Source: Patescibacteria group bacterium (GTDB taxonomy: Bacteria; Patescibacteriota; Minisyncoccia; Phycocordibacterales; BOKC01). Taken from it: a DNA stretch of 64,000 nucleotides. The notes below the pieces were generated by a model. That model did no database searches and was not told the origin of the DNA. It saw only the letters and a program-made list of their open reading frames with translations. Below, in pieces: positions 8,747 through 60,208 of this stretch (the stretch's first letter is position 1; the number at the start of each line of letters is the position of its first letter). Position numbers and translations under genes: made by a program. The stretch lies in the NCBI GenBank assembly GCA_038062955.1, contig JBBTWE010000001.1, forward strand, positions 453,640 through 517,639, read 5' to 3'.

Positions 8747-9316
8747 TTAGAACTTAACTTCTACAGGCTGTCTTGCCGCTTCTTCATTTGCTCCCAATTC
8801 AAAGAAATCTTTTTTGGCAAATCTAAACAACGAGGCAATGATGTTTGAAGGAAAAGATTCAATGGTGATGTTTAGATCTCTAACGTTGGTGTTATAAAAT
8901 CTTCTCGCGGCTTGGATTTTATTTTCAGTGTCAGATAATTCGCGTTGCAGTTCTAGGAAATTTTGGTTGGCTTTAAGATCAGGGTAATTTTCCGAGACCG
9001 CAAAAAGAGATTTGAGTGCACCAGAGAGCATATTTTCTGCCGCTGCAACTCCTGCTACATCTCCACTAACTTCCGAATTCATAGCTCGAGTTCTGGCTTC
9101 GGTAACAGCTTCGAAAACTCCTTTTTCATGTCCCGCATAGCCTTTCACCGTATTTATTAAATTTGGGATGAGATCATATCGTCTTTTTAATTGAACATCG
9201 ATATCCGCCCAAGCTTCCATTGCTCGATTAACCATTCTAATAAAACGATTGTAAGCAAAAATAACCCACAAGACTATGGCAACTAAGATGGCTATCAAAA
9301 TAGAATTTAGATTCAT
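8747..9316 (-). CDS. lemA: LemA family protein
   Basis: N-terminal TM followed by YNRFIRMVNRAMEAWADIDVQLKRRYDLIPNL, typical of LemA. Confidence 0.8.
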   Translation of the reverse strand: MNLNSILIAILVAIVLWVIFAYNRFIRMVNRAMEAWADIDVQLKRRYDLIPNLINTVKGYAGHEKGVFEAVTEARTRAMNSEVSGDVAGVAAAENMLSGALKSLFAVSENYPDLKANQNFLELQRELSDTENKIQAARRFYNTNVRDLNITIESFPSNIIASLFRFAKKDFFELGANEEAARQPVEVKF

Positions 9317-9334
9317 AATTGTTAGTACTTACAT

Positions 9335-9525
9335 ATCCGACGCATCTCTGCGTTACTTCGCTCCGAGCCTCCCTCAACGTATCATTAAATACGTCTCGGT
9401 ATGGTTCTGATTTCTACACCATAGAAATCATGTCGGGAGATTTTTTATCACGAAGTGATATAAAATTTCCGACTCGCTTGCGCCTTGATCTGCATTCGGC
9501 TCTGTAAGTCCTAAAAGTTAGTTTA
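9335..9525 (+). repeat. Dispersed intergenic repeat family, copy B (longest form, carries all modules)
   Basis: Contains the ccgacgcatctc start, the cttcgctccgagcctccctc...cgtctcggtatggttc hairpin module, the gaaatcatgtcgg...tatcacgaagtgata...ccgactcg module and the gcgccttgatctgcattc tail. Confidence 0.85.
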
Positions 9526-9582
9526 AGGTTTTTAAAGAGATTTAGGTCAAATTATAGCACAAAAACGAGTAGAAAGTTGTAC

Positions 9583-9602
9583 CTGCCTGCCGGCAGGCAG
9601 GA
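9583..9602. repeat. Perfect 20-bp palindrome cctgcctgccggcaggcagg
   Basis: Read directly from the sequence. Sits just downstream of repeat copy B. Confidence 0.9.
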
Positions 9603-9624
9603 AGTAAAAAGTGTAAAGTCAGTT

Positions 9625-9672
9625 CTAAATATAAATAAAGGGCGACCATGGCTGTTTTTGCCTTGGTCGCCC
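9625..9672 (-). terminator. Intrinsic terminator for the 9704-10162 gene
   Basis: On the minus strand, gggcgacc...ggtcgccc stem followed by a T-rich run. Confidence 0.6.
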
Positions 9673-9703
9673 CTCGTTGTGTGTGCTCATCGATCGCAAC
9701 TTG

Positions 9704-10162
9704 CTACCTTGGCAAGCCAACAAGCCACACGTCTTCGTTGTACCAATCGTCACTAGAGCCAGCGCGTACGTGAACGCAACGCTCTCCCGTAAGCACATCG
9801 AAGATCAGGAAACACCATTCGCCATTCTCATTCTGCCAATGAGTAGCATGGAAATGAGTACCGACAAGGGCATCGACTTCAATCGCGGCCATGAGAGAGT
9901 ATGGGTCGGCAGGCTTAAGACCCTCCTGCCAGAACGCTTCCTGGAGATCGGTGTCCGAGATGCGACCCCGCTTAGGCAGATTGGGCTTAAAGAAAATGAC
10001 TGTAACGGGATCCCACATGCCACGGGGCATTGTATCCATCACATCATCATCAACGTACTGCAAACACTTCGTTGCACTGAGGGCTTCTTGGGGAGAACGG
10101 GAACGATCCACCTGGACACGACGAAGGATTCTATTACCAGACTGAGCAAACGGTTGAGACAT
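9704..10162 (-). CDS. GC-rich hypothetical protein, about 152 aa, likely horizontally acquired
   Basis: About 52% GC against roughly 30% genome background. RBS ggaggtg before ATG (MSQPFAQSG...). Terminator downstream. HFHATHW motif. No family recognised. Confidence 0.6.
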   Translation of the reverse strand: MSQPFAQSGNRILRRVQVDRSRSPQEALSATKCLQYVDDDVMDTMPRGMWDPVTVIFFKPNLPKRGRISDTDLQEAFWQEGLKPADPYSLMAAIEVDALVGTHFHATHWQNENGEWCFLIFDVLTGERCVHVRAGSSDDWYNEDVWLVGLPR

Positions 10163-10546
10163 GACACACCTCCTCGATGTGTTGGAATTGGATTTGTGAC
10201 TTAGCGAAGTTGTCTGCCTCATCGGCAGATAAACTTTGCCACAGCAGGAGATAGCCCTGTAAAATTGATTCAGGATTCATGAAGCATGATTCAAGAATAA
10301 ATACAGAGCGAGCATCTGCTGTGGCAAAACCCTAGGAAAACGGGCAAGTCAGTGAGTTTTTAATGAACAATTTTCTGCGTCTAGCATACACATATTCGTG
10401 TATTTTGTCAATAATCAATGCGCCTGCCTCACCCTACACAACATAATAGAAAGAGACTAGCGAGCGCGGCGGCGCAAGCTCGAGGAATTTTCTAGCAAGA
10501 AAATATCCGTGCTCTTTCTGTTATGTTGTGTGGGGGTGGGACAAAA

Positions 10547-12335
<1,789 letters not shown>

Positions 12336-30149: not shown

Positions 30150-30177
30150 TTGACTTTTAAAAAATATCTAGTATAAT
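30150..30177 (+). promoter_or_regulatory. Near-consensus sigma-70 promoter TTGACT-N16-TATAAT
   Basis: Hexamers read directly. About 50 nt upstream of the S51 peptidase start. Confidence 0.6.
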
Positions 30178-30228
30178 GTGAGGTGGATGTTCCAATTTTT
30201 GGCACTTTCATTACACAGGAGAAATACA

Positions 30229-30855
30229 ATGAATAGTTTGAACGTGACCAGATACATACTCTCCGGAGGATTTATTACAAAAGCCTCCGATAGAGGTCGA
30301 GCTTTCTATCGAGCGATCATTGGGGATCAAATACGAAACGCAAAAGTTTTGATCTGTTGTTTCGCACTCCCCCGTGAGAACTGGGTAGCAGCATTTGACG
30401 ACGAAAAGGGCAGGTTTCAGTTGTTCAACGGTGCACTCACAATGCATTTCCAGAACGCTGATCCCAGTCGTTTCGCTGACCAAGTCGCATGGGCAGACGT
30501 GATTGTCTTCCGCGGAGGTTCAACCAAAAGCTTGATGGATGTCCTTTCGGATATTCTGGGCTGGCAGAAAAACCTTTCAGGAAAGACTGTGGTAGGCTCT
30601 TCTGCTGGAGCCCACATGCTCTCGTCGAGCTATCTCGTGACTGACGCAGGACCTCAACTTGCTACTGGCCTCGGTTTACTACCAGTAGTAATTGCAACCC
30701 ACTATCAGTCGACTTTCATTCATGATGGTGACATCGATAAGTCTCGGGTTTTCTGGGACAAAGTTGATAGTCTCCTGAAGTCGAAAGCTGGTGGAAAAGA
30801 TGTGCTTGCGTTGAAGGAGGGCGATTTCCAGATCGTCGCAAGTGACAACTCATGA
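30229..30855 (+). CDS. Peptidase S51 family (cyanophycinase / dipeptidase E-like)
   Basis: FRGGSTKSLMDVL and VGSSAGAHML match the S51 GGNT/GxSAG motifs. Moderately GC-rich. Start at MNSLNV with RBS acaggag. Confidence 0.7.
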   Translation: MNSLNVTRYILSGGFITKASDRGRAFYRAIIGDQIRNAKVLICCFALPRENWVAAFDDEKGRFQLFNGALTMHFQNADPSRFADQVAWADVIVFRGGSTKSLMDVLSDILGWQKNLSGKTVVGSSAGAHMLSSSYLVTDAGPQLATGLGLLPVVIATHYQSTFIHDGDIDKSRVFWDKVDSLLKSKAGGKDVLALKEGDFQIVASDNS

Positions 30856-35578: not shown

Positions 35579-35607
35579 TTGACAATAGATTCAAATTCAT
35601 TTATCAT
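35579..35607 (+). promoter_or_regulatory. Sigma-70-like promoter TTGACA-N17-TATCAT
   Basis: Consensus -35 and good -10, about 75 nt upstream of the small acidic ORF. Confidence 0.5.
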
Positions 35608-35682
35608 CTAGACTGGAATCTAACCATTGTTTTCACAATATTTGTGGGGTGGTTAGAGATGTTACCATAGACGGAGACAAAG

Positions 35683-35877
35683 ATGGGCAGAAAAGTGATC
35701 GGTCATGTCGATGGCGAAAGGACAACGACCGAAGTCGTCAAGCACGACAATCTGGTTTTCGAGAGCAGGTACTACGCCAACAACAAGGACGATGACACAT
35801 CTCGTGGTTCGTTCAACTCGGCCGACAAAGCGTTCGATGCTGCGGAGGAGATGAGCCCGGGAAGTGACGACGACTGA
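35683..35877 (+). CDS. GC-rich small acidic protein (64 aa) ending in ...EEMSPGSDDD
   Basis: RBS ggagacaaag-ATG. About 55% GC. A perfect 13-bp-stem terminator follows at 35887-35920. Confidence 0.55.
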   Translation: MGRKVIGHVDGERTTTEVVKHDNLVFESRYYANNKDDDTSRGSFNSADKAFDAAEEMSPGSDDD

Positions 35878-35886
35878 CCGGACTGG

Positions 35887-35920
35887 CTCGACTTTTTCAA
35901 AAAAGTCGAGCCATTTTATT
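35887..35920 (+). terminator. Intrinsic terminator (ggctcgacttttt-caa-aaaaagtcgagcc plus T-run)
   Basis: 13-bp perfect stem. Confidence 0.7.
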
Positions 35921-35990
35921 ACTTAGTTTTAAAACAGGTCTACGTTATACTAAAACATTAAACTTCAATCAGACTGTAAATTACTAAAGA

Positions 35991-37226
35991 GTGATGAGAA
36001 AAAAAACTTACAAAGCAAAATGTCCCCACTGCGATCCAATTAATAAACATCCCGCCCATATTCAGGAACGTTTAAGTAACTTTTTCTTTGACTTTAAGAA
36101 ATTGCTGATTTCTATAGAAAACAAATTTAAAAACAAATTCCCAAAGTTCTTTAATCATTTAAACAAAATTGTGTTCTATGGCAGTATAAAAACTCTTATT
36201 ACTATAGGGATTTTGAGAGAAGTTGAAATACCGAAGAAAAATGACTTCATCTCAAATCGTACTTTTGTGTTTCTAGCAGCCGCAAAACAAAGAGGAATAG
36301 AAGTGAAAACATTCCAAACTTTTAGTGGACGAAAAACAAATTTTTTTTCAATCATTATTAATGAGAAGAAAAAAATCTTTGAAATATTGCCTCACAATAA
36401 TATCGATTATGTAGAAATGGTTGAATTTGATAATAAAGATAAATTCAAGGAAATTTTACAAACTAATAGATTTCCGCACCCTGATGGAAAATCATTCAGC
36501 AATATCGACCAAGGAATTAATTTTGCCAAACAAAGAAATTTTCCTTTTGTTGTTAAACCTAGCTCTAGTTCTTTAAGCAAACACATTACTTGTAATATAC
36601 ATGATATCTTCTCTTTAAAAGAAGCAATCCGTATAGCACAAATAATTAATAGAGACTTTATTTTAGAAGAACATGTGGATGGACTAGTATATAGGATAAC
36701 TTTAGTTAGACATAAATTTATAGCATGTTGCTTAAGAGAAGCGCCGAATATTGTTGGTGATAATATCCACACGATTAAAGAATTGATAGAACAAAAAAAT
36801 AACCACGAGTGGCGCGGGGAGCCAGAAAAGAAAAATTATACATTGCGAAAAATTAAACTTACAGACAAGACCACCTCTATATTAAACTCCAAAGGATTTT
36901 CTTTAGAAAGTGTTCCAGAAAAAAATCAGAAAATATACTTGCATGACAAAGTAATTCTGGCGTGTGGGGCAGATATTCATGACAGAACAGATGAGATTCA
37001 TCCTGATAATATAAAAATGTTTGAAAAAATATCGGAACTTTGCAGATCCCCTATTATCGGAATTGATTTTATCTGTAAAGATATTTCAAAATCTTACAAA
37101 GAACAAAAAAGTGCTGTTATAGAAGCAAACTCTTTGCCTTACATAGATATGCATCATTATCCGGTTTCTGGAAAACCTAGAGATGTAGGTGGAGCAATTG
37201 CCGACTATCTTCTGTCTTTAAAATAA
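35991..37226 (+). CDS. ATP-grasp ligase resembling cyanophycin synthetase (CphA) N-terminal plus G domains, lacking the Mur-ligase-like domain
   Basis: FPFVVKPSSSS..., HVDGLVYRITLV, APNIVGDNIHTIKELIE, PIIGIDFICKDIS, and the tail AVIEANSLPYIDMHHYPVSGKPRDVGGAIADYL, which closely matches the CphA/RimK-type ...E(V)N..PG...H..P..G.PR.VA.AI.D.L ending. Confidence 0.55.
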   Translation: MMRKKTYKAKCPHCDPINKHPAHIQERLSNFFFDFKKLLISIENKFKNKFPKFFNHLNKIVFYGSIKTLITIGILREVEIPKKNDFISNRTFVFLAAAKQRGIEVKTFQTFSGRKTNFFSIIINEKKKIFEILPHNNIDYVEMVEFDNKDKFKEILQTNRFPHPDGKSFSNIDQGINFAKQRNFPFVVKPSSSSLSKHITCNIHDIFSLKEAIRIAQIINRDFILEEHVDGLVYRITLVRHKFIACCLREAPNIVGDNIHTIKELIEQKNNHEWRGEPEKKNYTLRKIKLTDKTTSILNSKGFSLESVPEKNQKIYLHDKVILACGADIHDRTDEIHPDNIKMFEKISELCRSPIIGIDFICKDISKSYKEQKSAVIEANSLPYIDMHHYPVSGKPRDVGGAIADYLLSLK

Positions 37227-37840
37227 GACAACGATGGACGAAATCGCAAAAATAAGTTTCTAGGTTTCTTTACGTAAGTATCGAGAATTTTTTTGTACCC
37301 AACTTCCTCGACAATTTTCCATGCTTGAGTATATTCGTCGGTTTCGTGCTTAAGGCAAGATTTTTTGTTTATTTCAATCAACTCTGGTCTTTTTAAAACG
37401 TCTGTAAAGATATGTTCTAAAAGCGCATGGACTATAATGTGATTCTTTAGCAATTTTGGTTCTTTACCAAATTTTTCGGTAAATTCTTTAGTCCATCCGT
37501 AACCAGATTTATGAACTAACTCATGAATAAATCTATTGAGAAAATCCCCTACTTTAACGTGAGCTCCAATAACAATAGCCAGACTATATTGCCTATGACA
37601 AGCCGAGACTACCGACACATCAACGATTGAATAAGGGAATTTCCTGTGAGTCTTTTTCTCAATAGTCGAAAAAACTACAGTTTCAATCGGAGACCAGGCA
37701 TCTTTATACTCTTGAATTCTTTTATCTATCTCCTCTTGAGTTGGAATTTTGTAATCCTTAAACTTTGGAAGAGATAAACAAAAAGGCTTAAAAACCTCAT
37801 CTAGATTTGGATTGTATCTAATATTTACCTTTGGTTTCAT
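37205..37840 (-). CDS. Hypothetical protein with HExxH motif (putative zinc metallopeptidase-like)
   Basis: FIHELVHKSGYGW. Overlaps the 3' end of the ATP-grasp gene by 22 nt (convergent). Confidence 0.45.
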   Translation of the reverse strand: MKPKVNIRYNPNLDEVFKPFCLSLPKFKDYKIPTQEEIDKRIQEYKDAWSPIETVVFSTIEKKTHRKFPYSIVDVSVVSACHRQYSLAIVIGAHVKVGDFLNRFIHELVHKSGYGWTKEFTEKFGKEPKLLKNHIIVHALLEHIFTDVLKRPELIEINKKSCLKHETDEYTQAWKIVEEVGYKKILDTYVKKPRNLFLRFRPSLSYFKDRR

Positions 37841-37847
37841 TGAATTT

Positions 37848-38675
37848 TTAATTAACCTCTCTCCCCAAAATAAACGCTTCCTGCCCCGCCTTTTCTCTTT
37901 TTCTACAGAAGATAATTAGATTTTTATTTTCCTGGGGCGCGTAGATTTTTTCATCTCCATCCTTCCCCAAAAATTCACCTTTCTTGAGCAAACCAAAGTC
38001 AGAGAAATTTTTTGCTGGAATAAAATTATTTTTTGTATGGTATATCTTGTAAGCTTGGATTGTTTTTTGCGCGTTATTTTTTCCCGGTATTTGTCCTGAG
38101 ATTATATTGTGTAAAATTAGAAAATCCACGATAGCTTGTTTTGCTATTTCAATAGATGAGGTATCAAAATGATATCCACACTCAACACATAGCCCAAAAC
38201 CTCCTTTTTTATTCATATAATAATCAGTTCCACCAGGTTCAAGATCGTCCCACCCAAAAGACTTGATTGGAAATGATAATCTTTCAGCTATATGAAAAGA
38301 CTTGGGTTCGCAAATAATAAAGGGCGAGCTGTTTTTTGTTTTACTAGAATGTATATCAAGGGACGCTTCACTTTCATCTAAATAAGCCATTATTATCTCG
38401 GCACGTTTCCTTTCATAACTTTCCATCTCTTTTGCAGAAAGCATCTCTTTAGGTTTAAATGCACGGTTCAGATTCATTTCGATAAACCTTGTTTTTTTCT
38501 TAATGGCCAGTAAATTGCCATAGATAAAATGCACCTTACCTCTTTCAATTGAAAGTGTCGGTATAATTTCTTTAAATGCTTCGATACCACACGTCTCGTC
38601 ACCGTGAATACCAGCTAGGATAGAAATTGTTTTACCTGGTTTTTTCCCAATAATTGTTTGTATGCCATCTTTCAT
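37848..38675 (-). CDS. Succinylglutamate desuccinylase / aspartoacylase (AstE/AspA) family zinc hydrolase
   Basis: ISILAGIHGDETCGIEA matches the GxHGxE zinc-binding motif of the AstE_AspA family. Confidence 0.65.
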   Translation of the reverse strand: MKDGIQTIIGKKPGKTISILAGIHGDETCGIEAFKEIIPTLSIERGKVHFIYGNLLAIKKKTRFIEMNLNRAFKPKEMLSAKEMESYERKRAEIIMAYLDESEASLDIHSSKTKNSSPFIICEPKSFHIAERLSFPIKSFGWDDLEPGGTDYYMNKKGGFGLCVECGYHFDTSSIEIAKQAIVDFLILHNIISGQIPGKNNAQKTIQAYKIYHTKNNFIPAKNFSDFGLLKKGEFLGKDGDEKIYAPQENKNLIIFCRKREKAGQEAFILGREVN

Positions 38676-38707: not shown

Positions 38708-39799
38708 TTATTCGACAAAAGAAGTTCTAAGTTTCGCTTCCACATTAAACCTCTTTATAGCAAGTTCAATAAGTGTATCGATCAATTTGCTATAAGATAC
38801 GCCACTTGCTTCCCATAATTTTGGATACATACTTATTGAAGTAAAACCTGGGATTGTATTTATTTCATTTACAATAATTTTATTATCTTTGGTTAAAAAG
38901 AAGTCGACCCTAGCCATTCCCTCACAACATAAAACTTCAAAAGTCTTAATTACCATTTTTTGAATATTTTTTATTGTAGATTTAGAAAGTTCCGCTGGAA
39001 TTTTTAATTCTGCTCCATTTTCGTCTAAATATTTAGCTTCGTATGAATAAAATTCGTGCTTGGGAATTATTTCACCCGGCAAAGATACTGTTGGTTTTTC
39101 GTTACCCAGAACAGAACATTCAATTTCACGTCCAGAAATATTTTCCTCGATCAATATTTTATTGTCATATAGAAAAGCAGAATCTATTGCCTTTTTAAAC
39201 TCTTTCTCCGAACGAACTTTTGAAACGCCCACTGACGATCCCAGATTTGCTGGCTTAACGAAGAAAGGCAGGGCAAGTTCTTTTTTTATTTTTTTGAACG
39301 AGATATATGCAAGTTCGTGTTTTTTATATACTAAAAACTTTGCAATTGGTAACTTAGCATCCCTTAACAATCTTTTCATCACATCTTTATCCATTCCTAG
39401 AGCAGAACCCAAAACACCTGCTCCGACAAAAGGAACGTTAGCAAGTTTGAGCAAGCCTTGAATAGTACCATCCTCACCAAATGGACCATGAAGCACTGGA
39501 AAAAAAACGTCAATCGGCTCATTTGTACTAGTATTTAATGTTTCAATTATTTTTCCACCATCCTGCGCCGCTAAAGCAATGGTATTAAGTGTATGTTTTT
39601 TCTCTATTTTTTCACCTTTCAAAATTAATTTTGATTCGATCTCTGGCAACCAACGACCGGTTTTATCTATACCAATCAAAATTGGTTCATATTTATTTTT
39701 ATCTAAGGCATCTATAATATTCTTTGCGGATCTAATCGATACCTCATGCTCAGCTGATTTTCCGCCATATAAAATACCAACGCGTATTTTTTTATTCAT
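38708..39799 (-). CDS. ddl: D-alanine--D-alanine ligase
   Basis: RVGILYGGKSAEHEVSIRSAKNI..., ATP-grasp core, EINTIPGFTSISMYPKLWEASG C-terminal motif. Confidence 0.85.
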   Translation of the reverse strand: MNKKIRVGILYGGKSAEHEVSIRSAKNIIDALDKNKYEPILIGIDKTGRWLPEIESKLILKGEKIEKKHTLNTIALAAQDGGKIIETLNTSTNEPIDVFFPVLHGPFGEDGTIQGLLKLANVPFVGAGVLGSALGMDKDVMKRLLRDAKLPIAKFLVYKKHELAYISFKKIKKELALPFFVKPANLGSSVGVSKVRSEKEFKKAIDSAFLYDNKILIEENISGREIECSVLGNEKPTVSLPGEIIPKHEFYSYEAKYLDENGAELKIPAELSKSTIKNIQKMVIKTFEVLCCEGMARVDFFLTKDNKIIVNEINTIPGFTSISMYPKLWEASGVSYSKLIDTLIELAIKRFNVEAKLRTSFVE

Positions 39800-40055
39800 A
39801 TAATTTATCCATTATAATCTATCATTTACAAATATCATCATAGTATCAAAAGAAATTATATGACACGGTGATTGGTGTCTAGACATAGGTTAAATATACA
39901 AAAAAGCGACCGTATGCTAAAAGAAAATTTTCATTTGACAATAATTGTCAAAAGTATTAGGGTTAATTTGGATCAACTGAGACTTGTCTTCATCAACATT
40001 TGGTGATGGCAATACTTTTCGTCTCAGGGTTCTTTCAAAAAAAGTTGGTAGAGAC

Positions 40056-40244
40056 ATGAGCCATCAGCAGATACCCGAGCAGGGCAAGGTCACGTTGTGT
40101 GGAGTAGAGGGATGTTGTCCCACAATCGACTTCACGGATCCTCACAAGGTGATTCTGAAGGACGACTTCGGTGGTCAAGTACAACTCACGCACGATCAGT
40201 GGGATGATCTGAAGACCAAGTTCTCGAAGGCCCATCAGGCCTGA
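40056..40244 (+). CDS. GC-rich small Cys-containing protein, DUF397-like (62 aa; ORF opens at 39984)
   Basis: LCGVEGCCP...VILKDDFGGQVQLTHDQWDDLKTKF resembles the DUF397 pattern C.EVA...V.VRDSKDP.GP.L.FT..EW..F. Immediately upstream of a radical-SAM/SPASM enzyme. Confidence 0.5.
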   Translation: MSHQQIPEQGKVTLCGVEGCCPTIDFTDPHKVILKDDFGGQVQLTHDQWDDLKTKFSKAHQA

Positions 40245-40347
40245 GCGGTTCTGGCATCGTGTACGATGTCAGGCTATCAGCTCTCAGCTACGCAAGTGGT
40301 TGGGAGCTGTTTCATTATTTACTAACCCCATTAGAGGATACAAGCAC

Positions 40348-41679
40348 ATGCTGTCCCGATATCTTTGCGTTCAGGAGAGAGATGGTGTTGTGGCGTTATT
40401 CCACGAACTTCATCCCGATCCTATCTTCTGTTCTTTAGATCAGTGGAAAAATCTTCTCGGTGGAATTATTGACGGTATCGAAGCGCTTCTTACTAAACTA
40501 AGAGAGCTCAGACTTATTGTCGATACACCCGAAGATGACGACCGTGAGTTTAAGCTAGTCGCCACTGCTCTTGAGCGTAAGCTCAACCAGCCGACAATCC
40601 TTTATCTCATGACATCTCAGGGTTGCAACTTTGGTTGTAAATACTGTCCTGTGCCGGAAACTGCAAAAAAGTACGGTGAATCGCTCCTTTCTAAAGAAGA
40701 TGCCGTCGCAGGCATTGATCTGTGGCAAGAACACATCACGGATGTGTACGACCCCGCCTTGAGATATTTCGTCATCTTCTATGGTGGCGAACCATTACTC
40801 AACCAAGCAGTGATCAAGGATTCCTTAAAGCATATCAAGACGAAGAAAGACGCCGGCAAATTGCCAGCAGACCTCAACATCATGATTGCAACAAATGGAT
40901 CCTTAGTGAACGCTGAAACCATTGCTTTATGTAAAGAATATGAAGTGATGGTTGCCGTTGGACTCGATGGTCCCAAATCACCAAACGACATACTGAAAGT
41001 GGATAGGGATGGTGCCGGAACGTATGATTTGATCGTCTCGACAATCAAATTACTCGTTCAACACGGAATCAGAACATTCGCATCAGTAAGTATCACACCC
41101 TTCAACATCGAACAGATTGCGGAGTATTCTGAATTTTTCAGTGAATTGGGAGTCGAAAAATTTGGCTTCAATTTTCTGAAGGGTCGACTACTTCTCGAAC
41201 TGGTTGGTCATGATGGTTTGAATAGCTACTATCGGCAGGCTTCGCATGGCATTATCGAGAATGCTCGCCGCCAGAGCAAGCCCGGATTTGAATACCAGAT
41301 GGAGAAGAAGCAAGTTGCTTTCGACAATAAGGATTTCTTCCCTGTCGACTGTACCTGCTATGGAAATCAACTGGTGATCCAACCTGACGGACAGATTTCC
41401 AATTGCCCATTTTTCAAAGCCTGGCTCGGCCAAGCAAGAGAGGTGAGCAAAGATTTTCGCATTTGGGATCAGCCAATCGTCAAGGAATGGCGGAAACGCT
41501 TACCTCTTTATCACTCAGGGCAAGCAAAAGCTATGTGTGGAGGTGGGTGTGCATGGAGTTCAAGCGAACTGAAAGGAAGTCCGCTTGCTGTTGATGATTC
41601 AAGTTCCATCTTTTCAAAGGAAGTACTCAATGAACTCATCTGGTCACGATACGACCGGGCCGAGTCTCAGAAAGCCTAG
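40348..41679 (+). CDS. Radical SAM/SPASM-domain enzyme with N-terminal RRE (PqqD-like) domain; putative peptide or protein maturase
   Basis: CNFGCKYC (CxxxCxxC), SPASM Cys clusters CTCYGNQLVIQPDGQISNC and CGGGCAW. N-terminal roughly 85 aa (ERDGVVALFHEL...SLDQWKNLLGG) fit the RRE pattern. RBS agagga before ATG at 40348. Confidence 0.7.
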   Translation: MLSRYLCVQERDGVVALFHELHPDPIFCSLDQWKNLLGGIIDGIEALLTKLRELRLIVDTPEDDDREFKLVATALERKLNQPTILYLMTSQGCNFGCKYCPVPETAKKYGESLLSKEDAVAGIDLWQEHITDVYDPALRYFVIFYGGEPLLNQAVIKDSLKHIKTKKDAGKLPADLNIMIATNGSLVNAETIALCKEYEVMVAVGLDGPKSPNDILKVDRDGAGTYDLIVSTIKLLVQHGIRTFASVSITPFNIEQIAEYSEFFSELGVEKFGFNFLKGRLLLELVGHDGLNSYYRQASHGIIENARRQSKPGFEYQMEKKQVAFDNKDFFPVDCTCYGNQLVIQPDGQISNCPFFKAWLGQAREVSKDFRIWDQPIVKEWRKRLPLYHSGQAKAMCGGGCAWSSSELKGSPLAVDDSSSIFSKEVLNELIWSRYDRAESQKA

Positions 41680-59516: not shown

Positions 59517-59644
59517 ATATTTAGGTACTAGGAATAGTATATCAAATCCTTCCAAAATTGGCTTTTAATTGACAACAATCGAGACTCATACTATATTCTC
59601 ACAGTACTGTTCTTTCCAAAATCAAAACCCAACAAGGAGGGGTT

Positions 59645-60208
59645 ATGAACAACAAGATCACTCTACTTCGTCACGGCAGTGTGGAGAAGACTTTCGGCGA
59701 TCATCGAAAGCATCTGCTGTCCGACGAAGGTCGTCGCCAAGCCAGTGCATGCCGGGAAAAGCTCGGCAACCCACGCTTCGATTGTGTTCTTCATTCACCA
59801 CTTGAACGCACCCGAGAAACTGCTCGGATCGTTGCAGGTCTCGAGGAAGATGAAGCAACGACTGTAATTCGTCCATTGTTCTATGATGCCACACACCCCG
59901 GCGTCGGAGTCCTGGATATGGCGTTCCGAAGACTGCACCACGATTCGCTTTCGGAGTACTACAAACTTCCCAACGTCCGCAAGCACATGGAGGCTCTGGC
60001 GTTGGATGCTTTCGCTCTCCTCGACGTGGAAATCAAATGCAGAAATGCAAAAGAAATCCTTGTAGTCGGGCATTGCGTGCTTCTTCTCGCTCTGTGCGCA
60101 GTCATCGCAGACAACGATGAACCCTTCATGAGCCGAGTCCTCGGCGAGTGCGAGGGTTATCGAATTCAGATGGAAAAAGGTCGGGCAAGTTCGATCGAAC
60201 CCATCTGA
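59645..60208 (+). CDS. Histidine phosphatase superfamily protein (PGAM/SixA-like), GC-rich
   Basis: LLRHGS (RHG catalytic motif). RBS aaggagg before ATG. About 55% GC. Terminator follows. Confidence 0.7.
   Translation: MNNKITLLRHGSVEKTFGDHRKHLLSDEGRRQASACREKLGNPRFDCVLHSPLERTRETARIVAGLEEDEATTVIRPLFYDATHPGVGVLDMAFRRLHHDSLSEYYKLPNVRKHMEALALDAFALLDVEIKCRNAKEILVVGHCVLLLALCAVIADNDEPFMSRVLGECEGYRIQMEKGRASSIEPI

Follow-up and report, generated by a model that had tools for sequence, protein, structure and literature searches.

We analyzed a 64,000-nucleotide (nt) window of a Patescibacteria genome from Hainich groundwater (GenBank assembly GCA_038062955.1, contig JBBTWE010000001.1, positions 453,640–517,639 of the forward strand), concentrating on a small gene and the gene for an ATP-grasp ligase that follows it (NCBI locus names AAB534_02450 and AAB534_02455). 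An initial annotation, made from the sequence alone, had placed a TTGACA-N17-TATCAT promoter, a long leader, a ribosome binding site and a terminator with a 13-bp stem around a small open reading frame (ORF) and had proposed that its product serves the downstream ligase. Every element that it listed is present at the coordinates it gave, and the whole small unit occupies window positions 35579–35923. The features of the locus are:

35579–35607, plus strand: sigma-70-type promoter, TTGACA-17 nt-TATCAT, near-consensus (score 11/12)

35619–35657, plus strand: 5′-end stem-loop of the leader, TCTAACCA...TGGTTAGA (inner stem CACAA/TTGTG), a few nt past the predicted transcription start

35673–35676, plus strand: Shine-Dalgarno (SD) sequence GGAG, 6 nt ahead of the ATG at 35683

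35683–35877, plus strand: gene for the small protein, 64 amino acids (aa) plus stop, ending ...AAEEMSPGSDDD; core from residue 1 to Ser58-Pro59, variable tail GSDDD

35884–35923, plus strand (stem-loop 35884–35913): intrinsic terminator with a perfect 13-bp stem and a 4-nt loop, then TTTTATTACT (−20 kcal/mol, z = −6.3; TTTTATT after the stem)

35991–37226, plus strand: gene for an ATP-grasp ligase that stands alone and is of the CphA G-domain type (410 aa, counted from an ATG at 35994), as assigned with phmmer, TIGR02068 and Foldseek

The initial annotation had set a GC-rich ORF in surroundings of roughly 30% GC. The contrast holds against the flanking genes (54% versus 36% and 31%), but less so across the window, whose mean is 38% and whose composition is patchy, with several genes at 50–57%; the island is thus extreme and not unique. 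The GC content at third codon positions (GC3) of the small ORF is 0.69, the highest among the 71 ORFs of the window (mean 0.34, standard deviation 0.10). The other frames across this stretch are also open, over 42–49 codons, and for that reason a 64-codon open frame in GC-rich DNA proves nothing by itself. Structured RNAs in AT-rich genomes classically stand out as GC-rich islands that have a promoter and a terminator to themselves, and the island could on this account be a non-coding RNA with an accidental ORF. The layout itself, the fairly open frames and a transcript that folds better than shuffled controls (z = −3.6) all speak for such an RNA. The folding signal of the whole transcript, however, can mostly be traced to the hairpin of the leader and to the terminator. 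Rfam 15 gave no match at the gathering threshold, its best permissive matches being at chance level and outside the ORF, and ARAGORN reported nothing in the small-gene region.

Conservation at the codon level in two other genomes shows that the small ORF is a true translated gene under purifying selection. Its relatives lie at L007:347–511 (54 aa), found by tblastn over the loci of ligase homologues, and at L041:49–237 (62 aa), found by reading the locus; neither had been called as a gene. The three proteins are 56–60% identical, with 27 invariant residues, and their genes differ pairwise at codon positions 1/2/3 by 16/14/38, 20/14/35 and 18/11/32. Synonymous sites are saturated (proportion of synonymous differences, pS, 0.73–0.87), compared with nonsynonymous differences (pN) of 0.27–0.30 (∼0.28), and invariant residues are specified by differing codons, as for R13, which is AGG, CGC and CGT in the three genomes. 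The start, M-[GSA]-R-K, is conserved together with the reading frame. Nonsynonymous change (dN) far below synonymous change (dS), with frame and start retained, is what a coding gene would leave, and we consider a non-coding RNA with an accidental ORF extremely unlikely. The initial reading of the 64-aa ORF as a real gene is borne out, and an additional role of its mRNA beyond coding is unsupported. Of the assemblies in which the gene is present, only some have it called, and in L007 it is missed. Two population variants were seen at the locus: an A>C change at window position 35728 (L002:9735, Hainich H43), which converts the otherwise invariant Thr16 to Pro, and a second variant at window position 35984 (L004), inside the gap ahead of the ligase.

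The signals around the small gene suggest strong expression. Promoters scoring 11/12 occur only five times in the 64-kb window on both strands, and one of them drives groES-groEL, so that the small-gene promoter scores the same as that of groESL; L007 carries TTGACA-16-TAAACT at the equivalent place. The window leader (∼69 nt) folds to −18.5 kcal/mol (z = −2.5) and its counterpart to −44 kcal/mol (z = −6.9) in L007, where a perfect 20-bp hairpin begins a few nt past the predicted start. Pairing of the inner stem is kept in the three genomes despite changes on both sides (CACAA/TTGTG, CATGA/TCATG and CGCAA/TTGCG), and a G-rich, GGGTTGG-like run is conserved in the 3′ arm of the hairpin. An mRNA that begins with a hairpin is usually stabilized by it, being shielded from decay that depends on the 5′ end, and this may hold here. 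When the GC-rich genes of the window were checked for a shared “stable mRNA” architecture, no 5′ hairpin was found at the other genes with strong promoters. The SD sequence of L041 is AGGAG at the same place, and terminators follow the ORF in both relatives (L007:521–548, 11 bp; L041:259–286, 12 bp). The L041 contig is cut within the leader, which puts the promoter out of view, and retains the inner hairpin, the AGGAG, the ORF and the 12-bp terminator. The expression signals are conserved in the relatives of the small gene, and that the gene and its signals are real is in our judgment nearly certain.

Codon usage points the same way. The fraction NNC/(NNC+NNT) is 0.77, 0.69 and 0.82 in the three small genes and 0.32, 0.24 and 0.19 in the adjacent ligase genes. 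Since synonymous sites are saturated, this preference for C-ending codons must have been upheld independently in each lineage. Translational selection was considered as its source and set aside, as GroEL, GroES and GAPDH show no such preference (0.22–0.26). With its near-consensus promoter, 5′ hairpin, SD sequence, C-ending codons and strong terminator, the small gene looks built for high output.

Two observations concern these signals elsewhere. The small gene of L007 lies between two similar hairpins, GCCCGATTT...AAATCGGGC, one upstream of the promoter (L007:167–204) and the other being the terminator (L007:521–548); they could be a repeated terminator element of the L007 genome or the trace of a cassette. 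Within the window, GC-rich genes tend toward near-consensus promoters: score-11/12 sites precede a GC-rich S51 peptidase of the cyanophycinase/dipeptidase E family (30150–30855, 5 kb upstream of the ligase) and a GC-rich His-phosphatase (59569–60208), neither of which has a 5′ hairpin.

A single-sequence AlphaFold2 (AF2) model of the small protein (predicted local distance difference test, pLDDT, 67) contains strands at residues 3–9, 12–21 and 24–31, a loop, a helix at 46–54 and a disordered end. The core is thus probably a three-stranded sheet followed by a helix, extending up to the invariant Ser58-Pro59. Nothing beyond this Ser-Pro is conserved: the members end in ...SPGSDDD (window), ...SPSDED (L041) and ...ESPRR (L007), with tails of GSDDD, SDED and RR. 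Net charge is −7, −6 and +11, respectively, and the L007 protein has a pI of 11.6; its basic tail and charge are agreed on by two independent assemblies of one sequencing run (ERR2191545). Acidity is not a family property of the small protein, and neither its tail nor its net charge is conserved. None of the three proteins contains Cys. Their common signature can be written MxRKxIG...YYAN...RGSFxSxxKAFxAA...SP.

The searches made for the small protein brought up no relatives beyond these three. Pfam, PHROGs, NCBIfam and PADLOC gave no significant family; the best sub-threshold matches, DUF7336 (E = 0.003) and phrog_22675 (E = 0.002), involve one member each and fall on the strand-loop-helix segment YYAN...RGSFxSxxKAF. 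A profile search of the PDB returned an ACT-domain protein at best (E = 0.48), and Foldseek with the small-protein model, itself of modest confidence, matched no known fold (best E = 0.43). A resemblance to Sso7d was considered; the PDB profile search gave it no support and it was dropped. Word-indexed protein searches with the single sequence and with a three-sequence profile recovered only the window's own protein or chance matches, and an exhaustive phmmer search of 1.84 billion representatives added no member, its three extra matches being long repeat proteins with many weak stretches. No further member appeared in a scan of Joint Genome Institute (JGI) metagenomes, in a scan of viral contigs or in a tblastn search of phages, and a second metagenome scan with the ∼38-bit degenerate pattern RGSFxSxxKAFxAA yielded 17 matches, all without the other motifs. 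The small gene is lineage-specific and occurs in three known Patescibacteria lineages only.

The downstream gene encodes, as the initial annotation had it, a protein resembling the G domain of CphA without the M domain. CphA1 consists of an N domain, an ATP-grasp G domain and a Mur-ligase-like M domain in ∼870–900 aa. The 410-aa ligase matches only the G domain of this three-domain architecture: against the PDB, phmmer aligned its residues 148–408 with CphA1 (7lgn, E = 5e-36), and TIGR02068 placed residues 96–408 on model positions 166–471 of 862 (221 bits, against a cut-off of 850). Its AF2 model (pLDDT 91.7) superposes on CphA2, CphA1 and GshF (Foldseek E ∼1e-29), the CphA alignment showing ∼27% identity over ∼328 columns. 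The M domain and the CphA N domain are both absent; in place of the latter, the N-terminal ∼70 residues carry a CxxCDP...H motif and a helical bundle. The nucleotide- and Mg-binding motifs of the G domain are intact as in CphA1, with K188 (in VVKP), E225 and N379 invariant in 73 family members and E377 (of E377-x-N379) conserved in at least 90%. The family is widespread in Patescibacteria (201 matches).

Other ATP-grasp enzymes are far more remote. In Foldseek, ArgX (2e-11), PsnB (7dro, 2e-9), LysX (1e-9) and RimK (1e-8) match at 12–13% identity, and Pfam RimK does not match the window ligase at E<0.01. At the sequence level the ligase falls outside the RimK/LysX/ArgX branch, and it is not close to MdnC/PsnB-type macrocyclases, with PsnB (12% identity) far behind CphA and GshF. 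Judged by sequence and fold, the ligase belongs with CphA and GshF and not with RimK, LysX or the graspetide ligases, and the RimK and microviridin-type analogies that had been drawn for it are not upheld.

Several neighbors of the ligase genes may be recorded here. Downstream of the window ligase on the opposite strand (37205–38675 and 38708–39799, both minus) lie genes for a 211-aa protein that matches no family, a succinylglutamate-desuccinylase/aspartoacylase-type zinc hydrolase and a D-Ala-D-Ala ligase. The ligase of L009 sits among MurD-like, Mur-ligase, DivIC and FtsX genes. Such neighbors may connect the ligase family with the cell envelope, though not consistently. At L043:11–3053 there are two tandem ligase copies, and between them small genes resembling an antitoxin of the Phd type and a toxin of the RelE type; a degraded version of this Phd/RelE-like pair lies upstream of a single ligase gene in L042 and in L044.

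What ties the small gene to the ligase is its genomic position. The co-occurrence check suggested in the initial annotation came out in favor of a link: all three members of the small-protein family lie directly upstream of an orthologous CphA-like ligase gene, 70–115 nt away, and the searches located no member in any other place. When 119 ligases of the family were placed in a tree, the partnered ligases (P0002, P0003 and P0004) were mutually closest and formed a clade of their own, which is deep (52–57% identity between the ligases). The genes downstream of them differ at all three loci (the minus-strand gene for the 211-aa protein, a NUDIX gene and another minus-strand gene). Among ∼35 other ligase loci (the sister clade L009 and L042–L045, and 31 reference-genome loci), no relative of the small protein was detected by tblastn, by a hidden Markov model (HMM) search of upstream ORFs or by a six-frame HMM search. 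The sister clade, 50–53% identical to the partnered ligases, lacks the small gene. Only seven substitutions are specific to the partnered clade, six of them conservative, and there are no indels. The pairing is thus narrow, if exclusive, and the ligase itself looks unchanged.

These observations can be read in two main ways. In the first, the small gene is an unrelated neighbor: an independent, highly expressed monocistronic gene that was inserted upstream of the ligase gene in the clade ancestor and was kept there by inheritance or by a dependence on its promoter that the ligase acquired, the two proteins having no functional link. The gene's own strong promoter and strong terminator fit this account, as do a ligase family that works without the small gene at the other loci, three partnered ligases with no visible specialization, and the unrelated upstream neighbors of the unpartnered ligases (toxin-antitoxin pairs, YidD, DivIC and a glyoxalase-like gene), which are heterogeneous. 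Against it, adjacency has outlasted the divergence of the ligases while the downstream genes changed in three of three loci, and the searches never brought up the small gene in another context. The charges of the two proteins also run counter to it. Over the N-terminal ∼72 residues, the net charge of the ligase is +11 in the window, +7 in L041 and −1 in L007, an order opposite to that of the small proteins; in the family as a whole this charge is +6.2±3.0 (n = 97), which makes +11 the 97th percentile and −1 the 1st. Opposite charges hint at a contact between the small protein and the ligase N-terminus, although with n = 3 this is suggestive only. We regard the unrelated neighbor as a serious rival, quite possible though short of probable.

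The second reading, which we tentatively favor at somewhat less than even odds, makes the small protein a partner or a substrate that the ligase recognizes via its folded core. It would be abundant and specific to this lineage, and the two genes would probably be expressed from one attenuated transcription unit. The T-tract of the terminator lies only ∼25–30 nt from the ligase start in L007 and L041, and 77 nt from it in the window. No promoter-like site was found between the terminator and the ligase at any of the three loci, by a scan that is insensitive in these genomes: of 34 ligase loci, it showed such a site ahead of the gene in only 12, and it missed even cases with a divergent upstream gene, which need a promoter. 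The apparent lack of a promoter is weak evidence for this reason, and the spacing is the better argument. The short spacing and the gap free of promoter-like sites suggest that the ligase is transcribed by polymerases that read through the terminator. In lantibiotic operons, a structural gene is followed by a leaky internal terminator and then by modification genes. The order here, read from the sequence, is similar: a strong promoter, a small gene, a strong terminator and, shortly after, an enzyme gene with no evident promoter of its own.

In the favored reading, the signals from the promoter to the terminator would yield an abundant small protein, and the fraction of polymerases that reads through would set the output at much small protein and little ligase. 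The small protein would contact the N-terminal Cys/His-plus-helices region of the ligase, either as an accessory or regulatory subunit or as a substrate recognized by its folded core, and not as a primer defined by an acidic C-terminus. The tail after Ser-Pro is short, would be disordered and appears to evolve freely. Read-through co-transcription, physical contact and any chemistry of the ligase on the small protein are steps that we infer. In a more specific version, the ligase would dock the core of the small protein on its N-terminal domain and activate the tail carboxylate, giving a protein-primed amino-acid polymer or coupling the small protein to amines of other molecules, in the manner of Pup or ubiquitin tagging but with an ATP-grasp enzyme. 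Recognition of the core and not of the tail sequence would then account for the freedom of the tail to vary; we think this version improbable.

Several points weigh against a functional partnership. Most ligase loci, including those of the sister clade, do without the small gene, and there are just three cases behind the linkage and behind the charge pattern. The few, conservative clade substitutions give no sign that the ligase has adapted to a new substrate. The terminators are strong, and a small gene transcribed by itself, as a monocistronic unit, is an equally good account of them. Finally, the model of the small protein is of modest confidence, with no fold match to anchor it.

The initial annotation had gone further, proposing a dedicated small acidic substrate or primer whose acidic C-terminus is extended by the ligase. 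Of this proposal, the exclusive adjacency to the ligase stands, but acidity is not conserved, most ligases lack such a partner and those that have one are hardly altered. The model was an analogy to RimK and ribosomal protein S6, with the ligase adding Asp or Glu to the acidic C-terminus or the small protein priming an acidic polymer. CphA-type G domains, as in CphA1 and GshF, activate the C-terminal α-carboxylate of a peptide and add an amino acid. The closeness of the ligase to precisely these structures, the acidic ends of two of the three members, a tail that is predicted to be disordered and hence accessible, and the sustained co-occurrence of the two genes are what such a model would lead one to expect. 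The third member, however, is strongly basic and ends in PRR, no tail residue is conserved, the small protein is unrelated to S6, and the ligase resembles RimK at the fold level only (E 1e-8, 13% identity). CphA is not known to use a protein primer. Extension of an acidic C-terminus is on this evidence unlikely.

A small protein of 54–64 aa encoded beside an ATP-grasp ligase, with a folded N-terminal part and a flexible tail that is acidic in two of three members, also recalls the LysW/LysX (ArgX) systems of Thermus and Sulfolobus, in which case the ligase would attach an amino acid or metabolite to a carboxylate of the small protein as a carrier for further enzymatic steps. Outside CphA and GshF, the ligase finds its best structural matches in ArgX and LysX. 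LysW starts with a zinc ribbon (CxxC...CxxC), and its C-terminus is a conserved acidic motif whose last residue is Glu. In contrast, the small protein, lacking Cys, can form no zinc ribbon; a conserved Glu at the C-terminus is missing, as is any EDWGE-like motif, the tails ending in DDD, DED or, in the basic L007 protein, PRR. The ligase is of another ATP-grasp branch, its LysX/ArgX match being one of fold only (13% identity, E 2e-11 versus 1e-29 for CphA), and no LysY-, LysZ-, LysJ- or LysK-type pathway genes lie nearby or downstream. A LysW-like carrier is thus very unlikely.

The arrangement of a small gene, a terminator and an enzyme gene resembles, in addition, operons for peptides that the ribosome makes and that are modified after translation (RiPPs), and the small protein might be a graspetide precursor of the microviridin type that the ATP-grasp enzyme cross-links. 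Pairs of graspetide precursors and macrocyclases have been reported in candidate phyla radiation (CPR) bacteria (PMC8939145), gene callers often overlook the precursor-like gene, as they did here, and the small protein has conserved Ser, Thr and Lys residues. By the criteria of the same study, a leader carries the motif “Phhx(1,2)h”, often with a GG site, and the core has conserved Thr/Ser and Asp/Glu or Lys (PMC8939145). The small protein has neither the leader motif nor a GG cleavage motif: its only invariant Pro is in the C-terminal SP, with no hydrophobic residues after it. No acidic residue is unambiguously invariant, which leaves no conserved acceptor, and conservation is spread throughout the protein in the manner of a folded domain and not of a leader with a hypervariable core. 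The enzyme, moreover, is CphA-type (PsnB, 12% identity, E 2e-9), and a transporter and a peptidase are absent from the locus. We consider a graspetide precursor highly improbable. The pair formed by the small gene and the ligase gene therefore belongs to none of the LysW/LysX, RimK/S6 and graspetide systems. CphA1 and CphA2 come nearest through the ATP-grasp module alone, the ligase differing from them in its length and in its N-terminal CxxCDP...H motif and helices.

Two other GC-rich stretches of the window were noted. A small ORF at 39984–40244 (plus strand; 86 aa with a TTG start, or 62 aa in the L001 gene call; GC3 0.53) has a Cys-containing stretch, ...VTLCGVEGCCPTIDF..., and lies directly upstream of the gene for a radical S-adenosylmethionine (SAM) enzyme (40300–41679, plus strand; PF04055 and Fer4_12); the two look like a pair of precursor peptide and maturase. 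Between position 9316 and groEL (10547–12247, minus strand), a stretch of 52–57% GC at ∼9600–10200 contains a 175-aa ORF (9677–10204), which has no Pfam match; a permissive Rfam search of 9300–10560 returned nothing.

Patescibacteria have tiny genomes that are full of unassigned genes. Stand-alone CphA-like ligases are widespread among them and have no known substrate, and a small protein attached to such a ligase is an experimental handle on what the ligase binds or modifies. Should the two genes be linked in function, they would give the theme of a small protein plus an ATP-grasp enzyme a new form on the CphA branch. If the small protein is a substrate, protein-directed ATP-grasp chemistry would no longer be confined to the RimK/LysX branch and that of the graspetides but would reach the cyanophycin-synthetase branch too. 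And if it is only a neighbor, the locus would still be a clean case of a small gene, real and conserved, that has mostly escaped both gene callers and protein databases.

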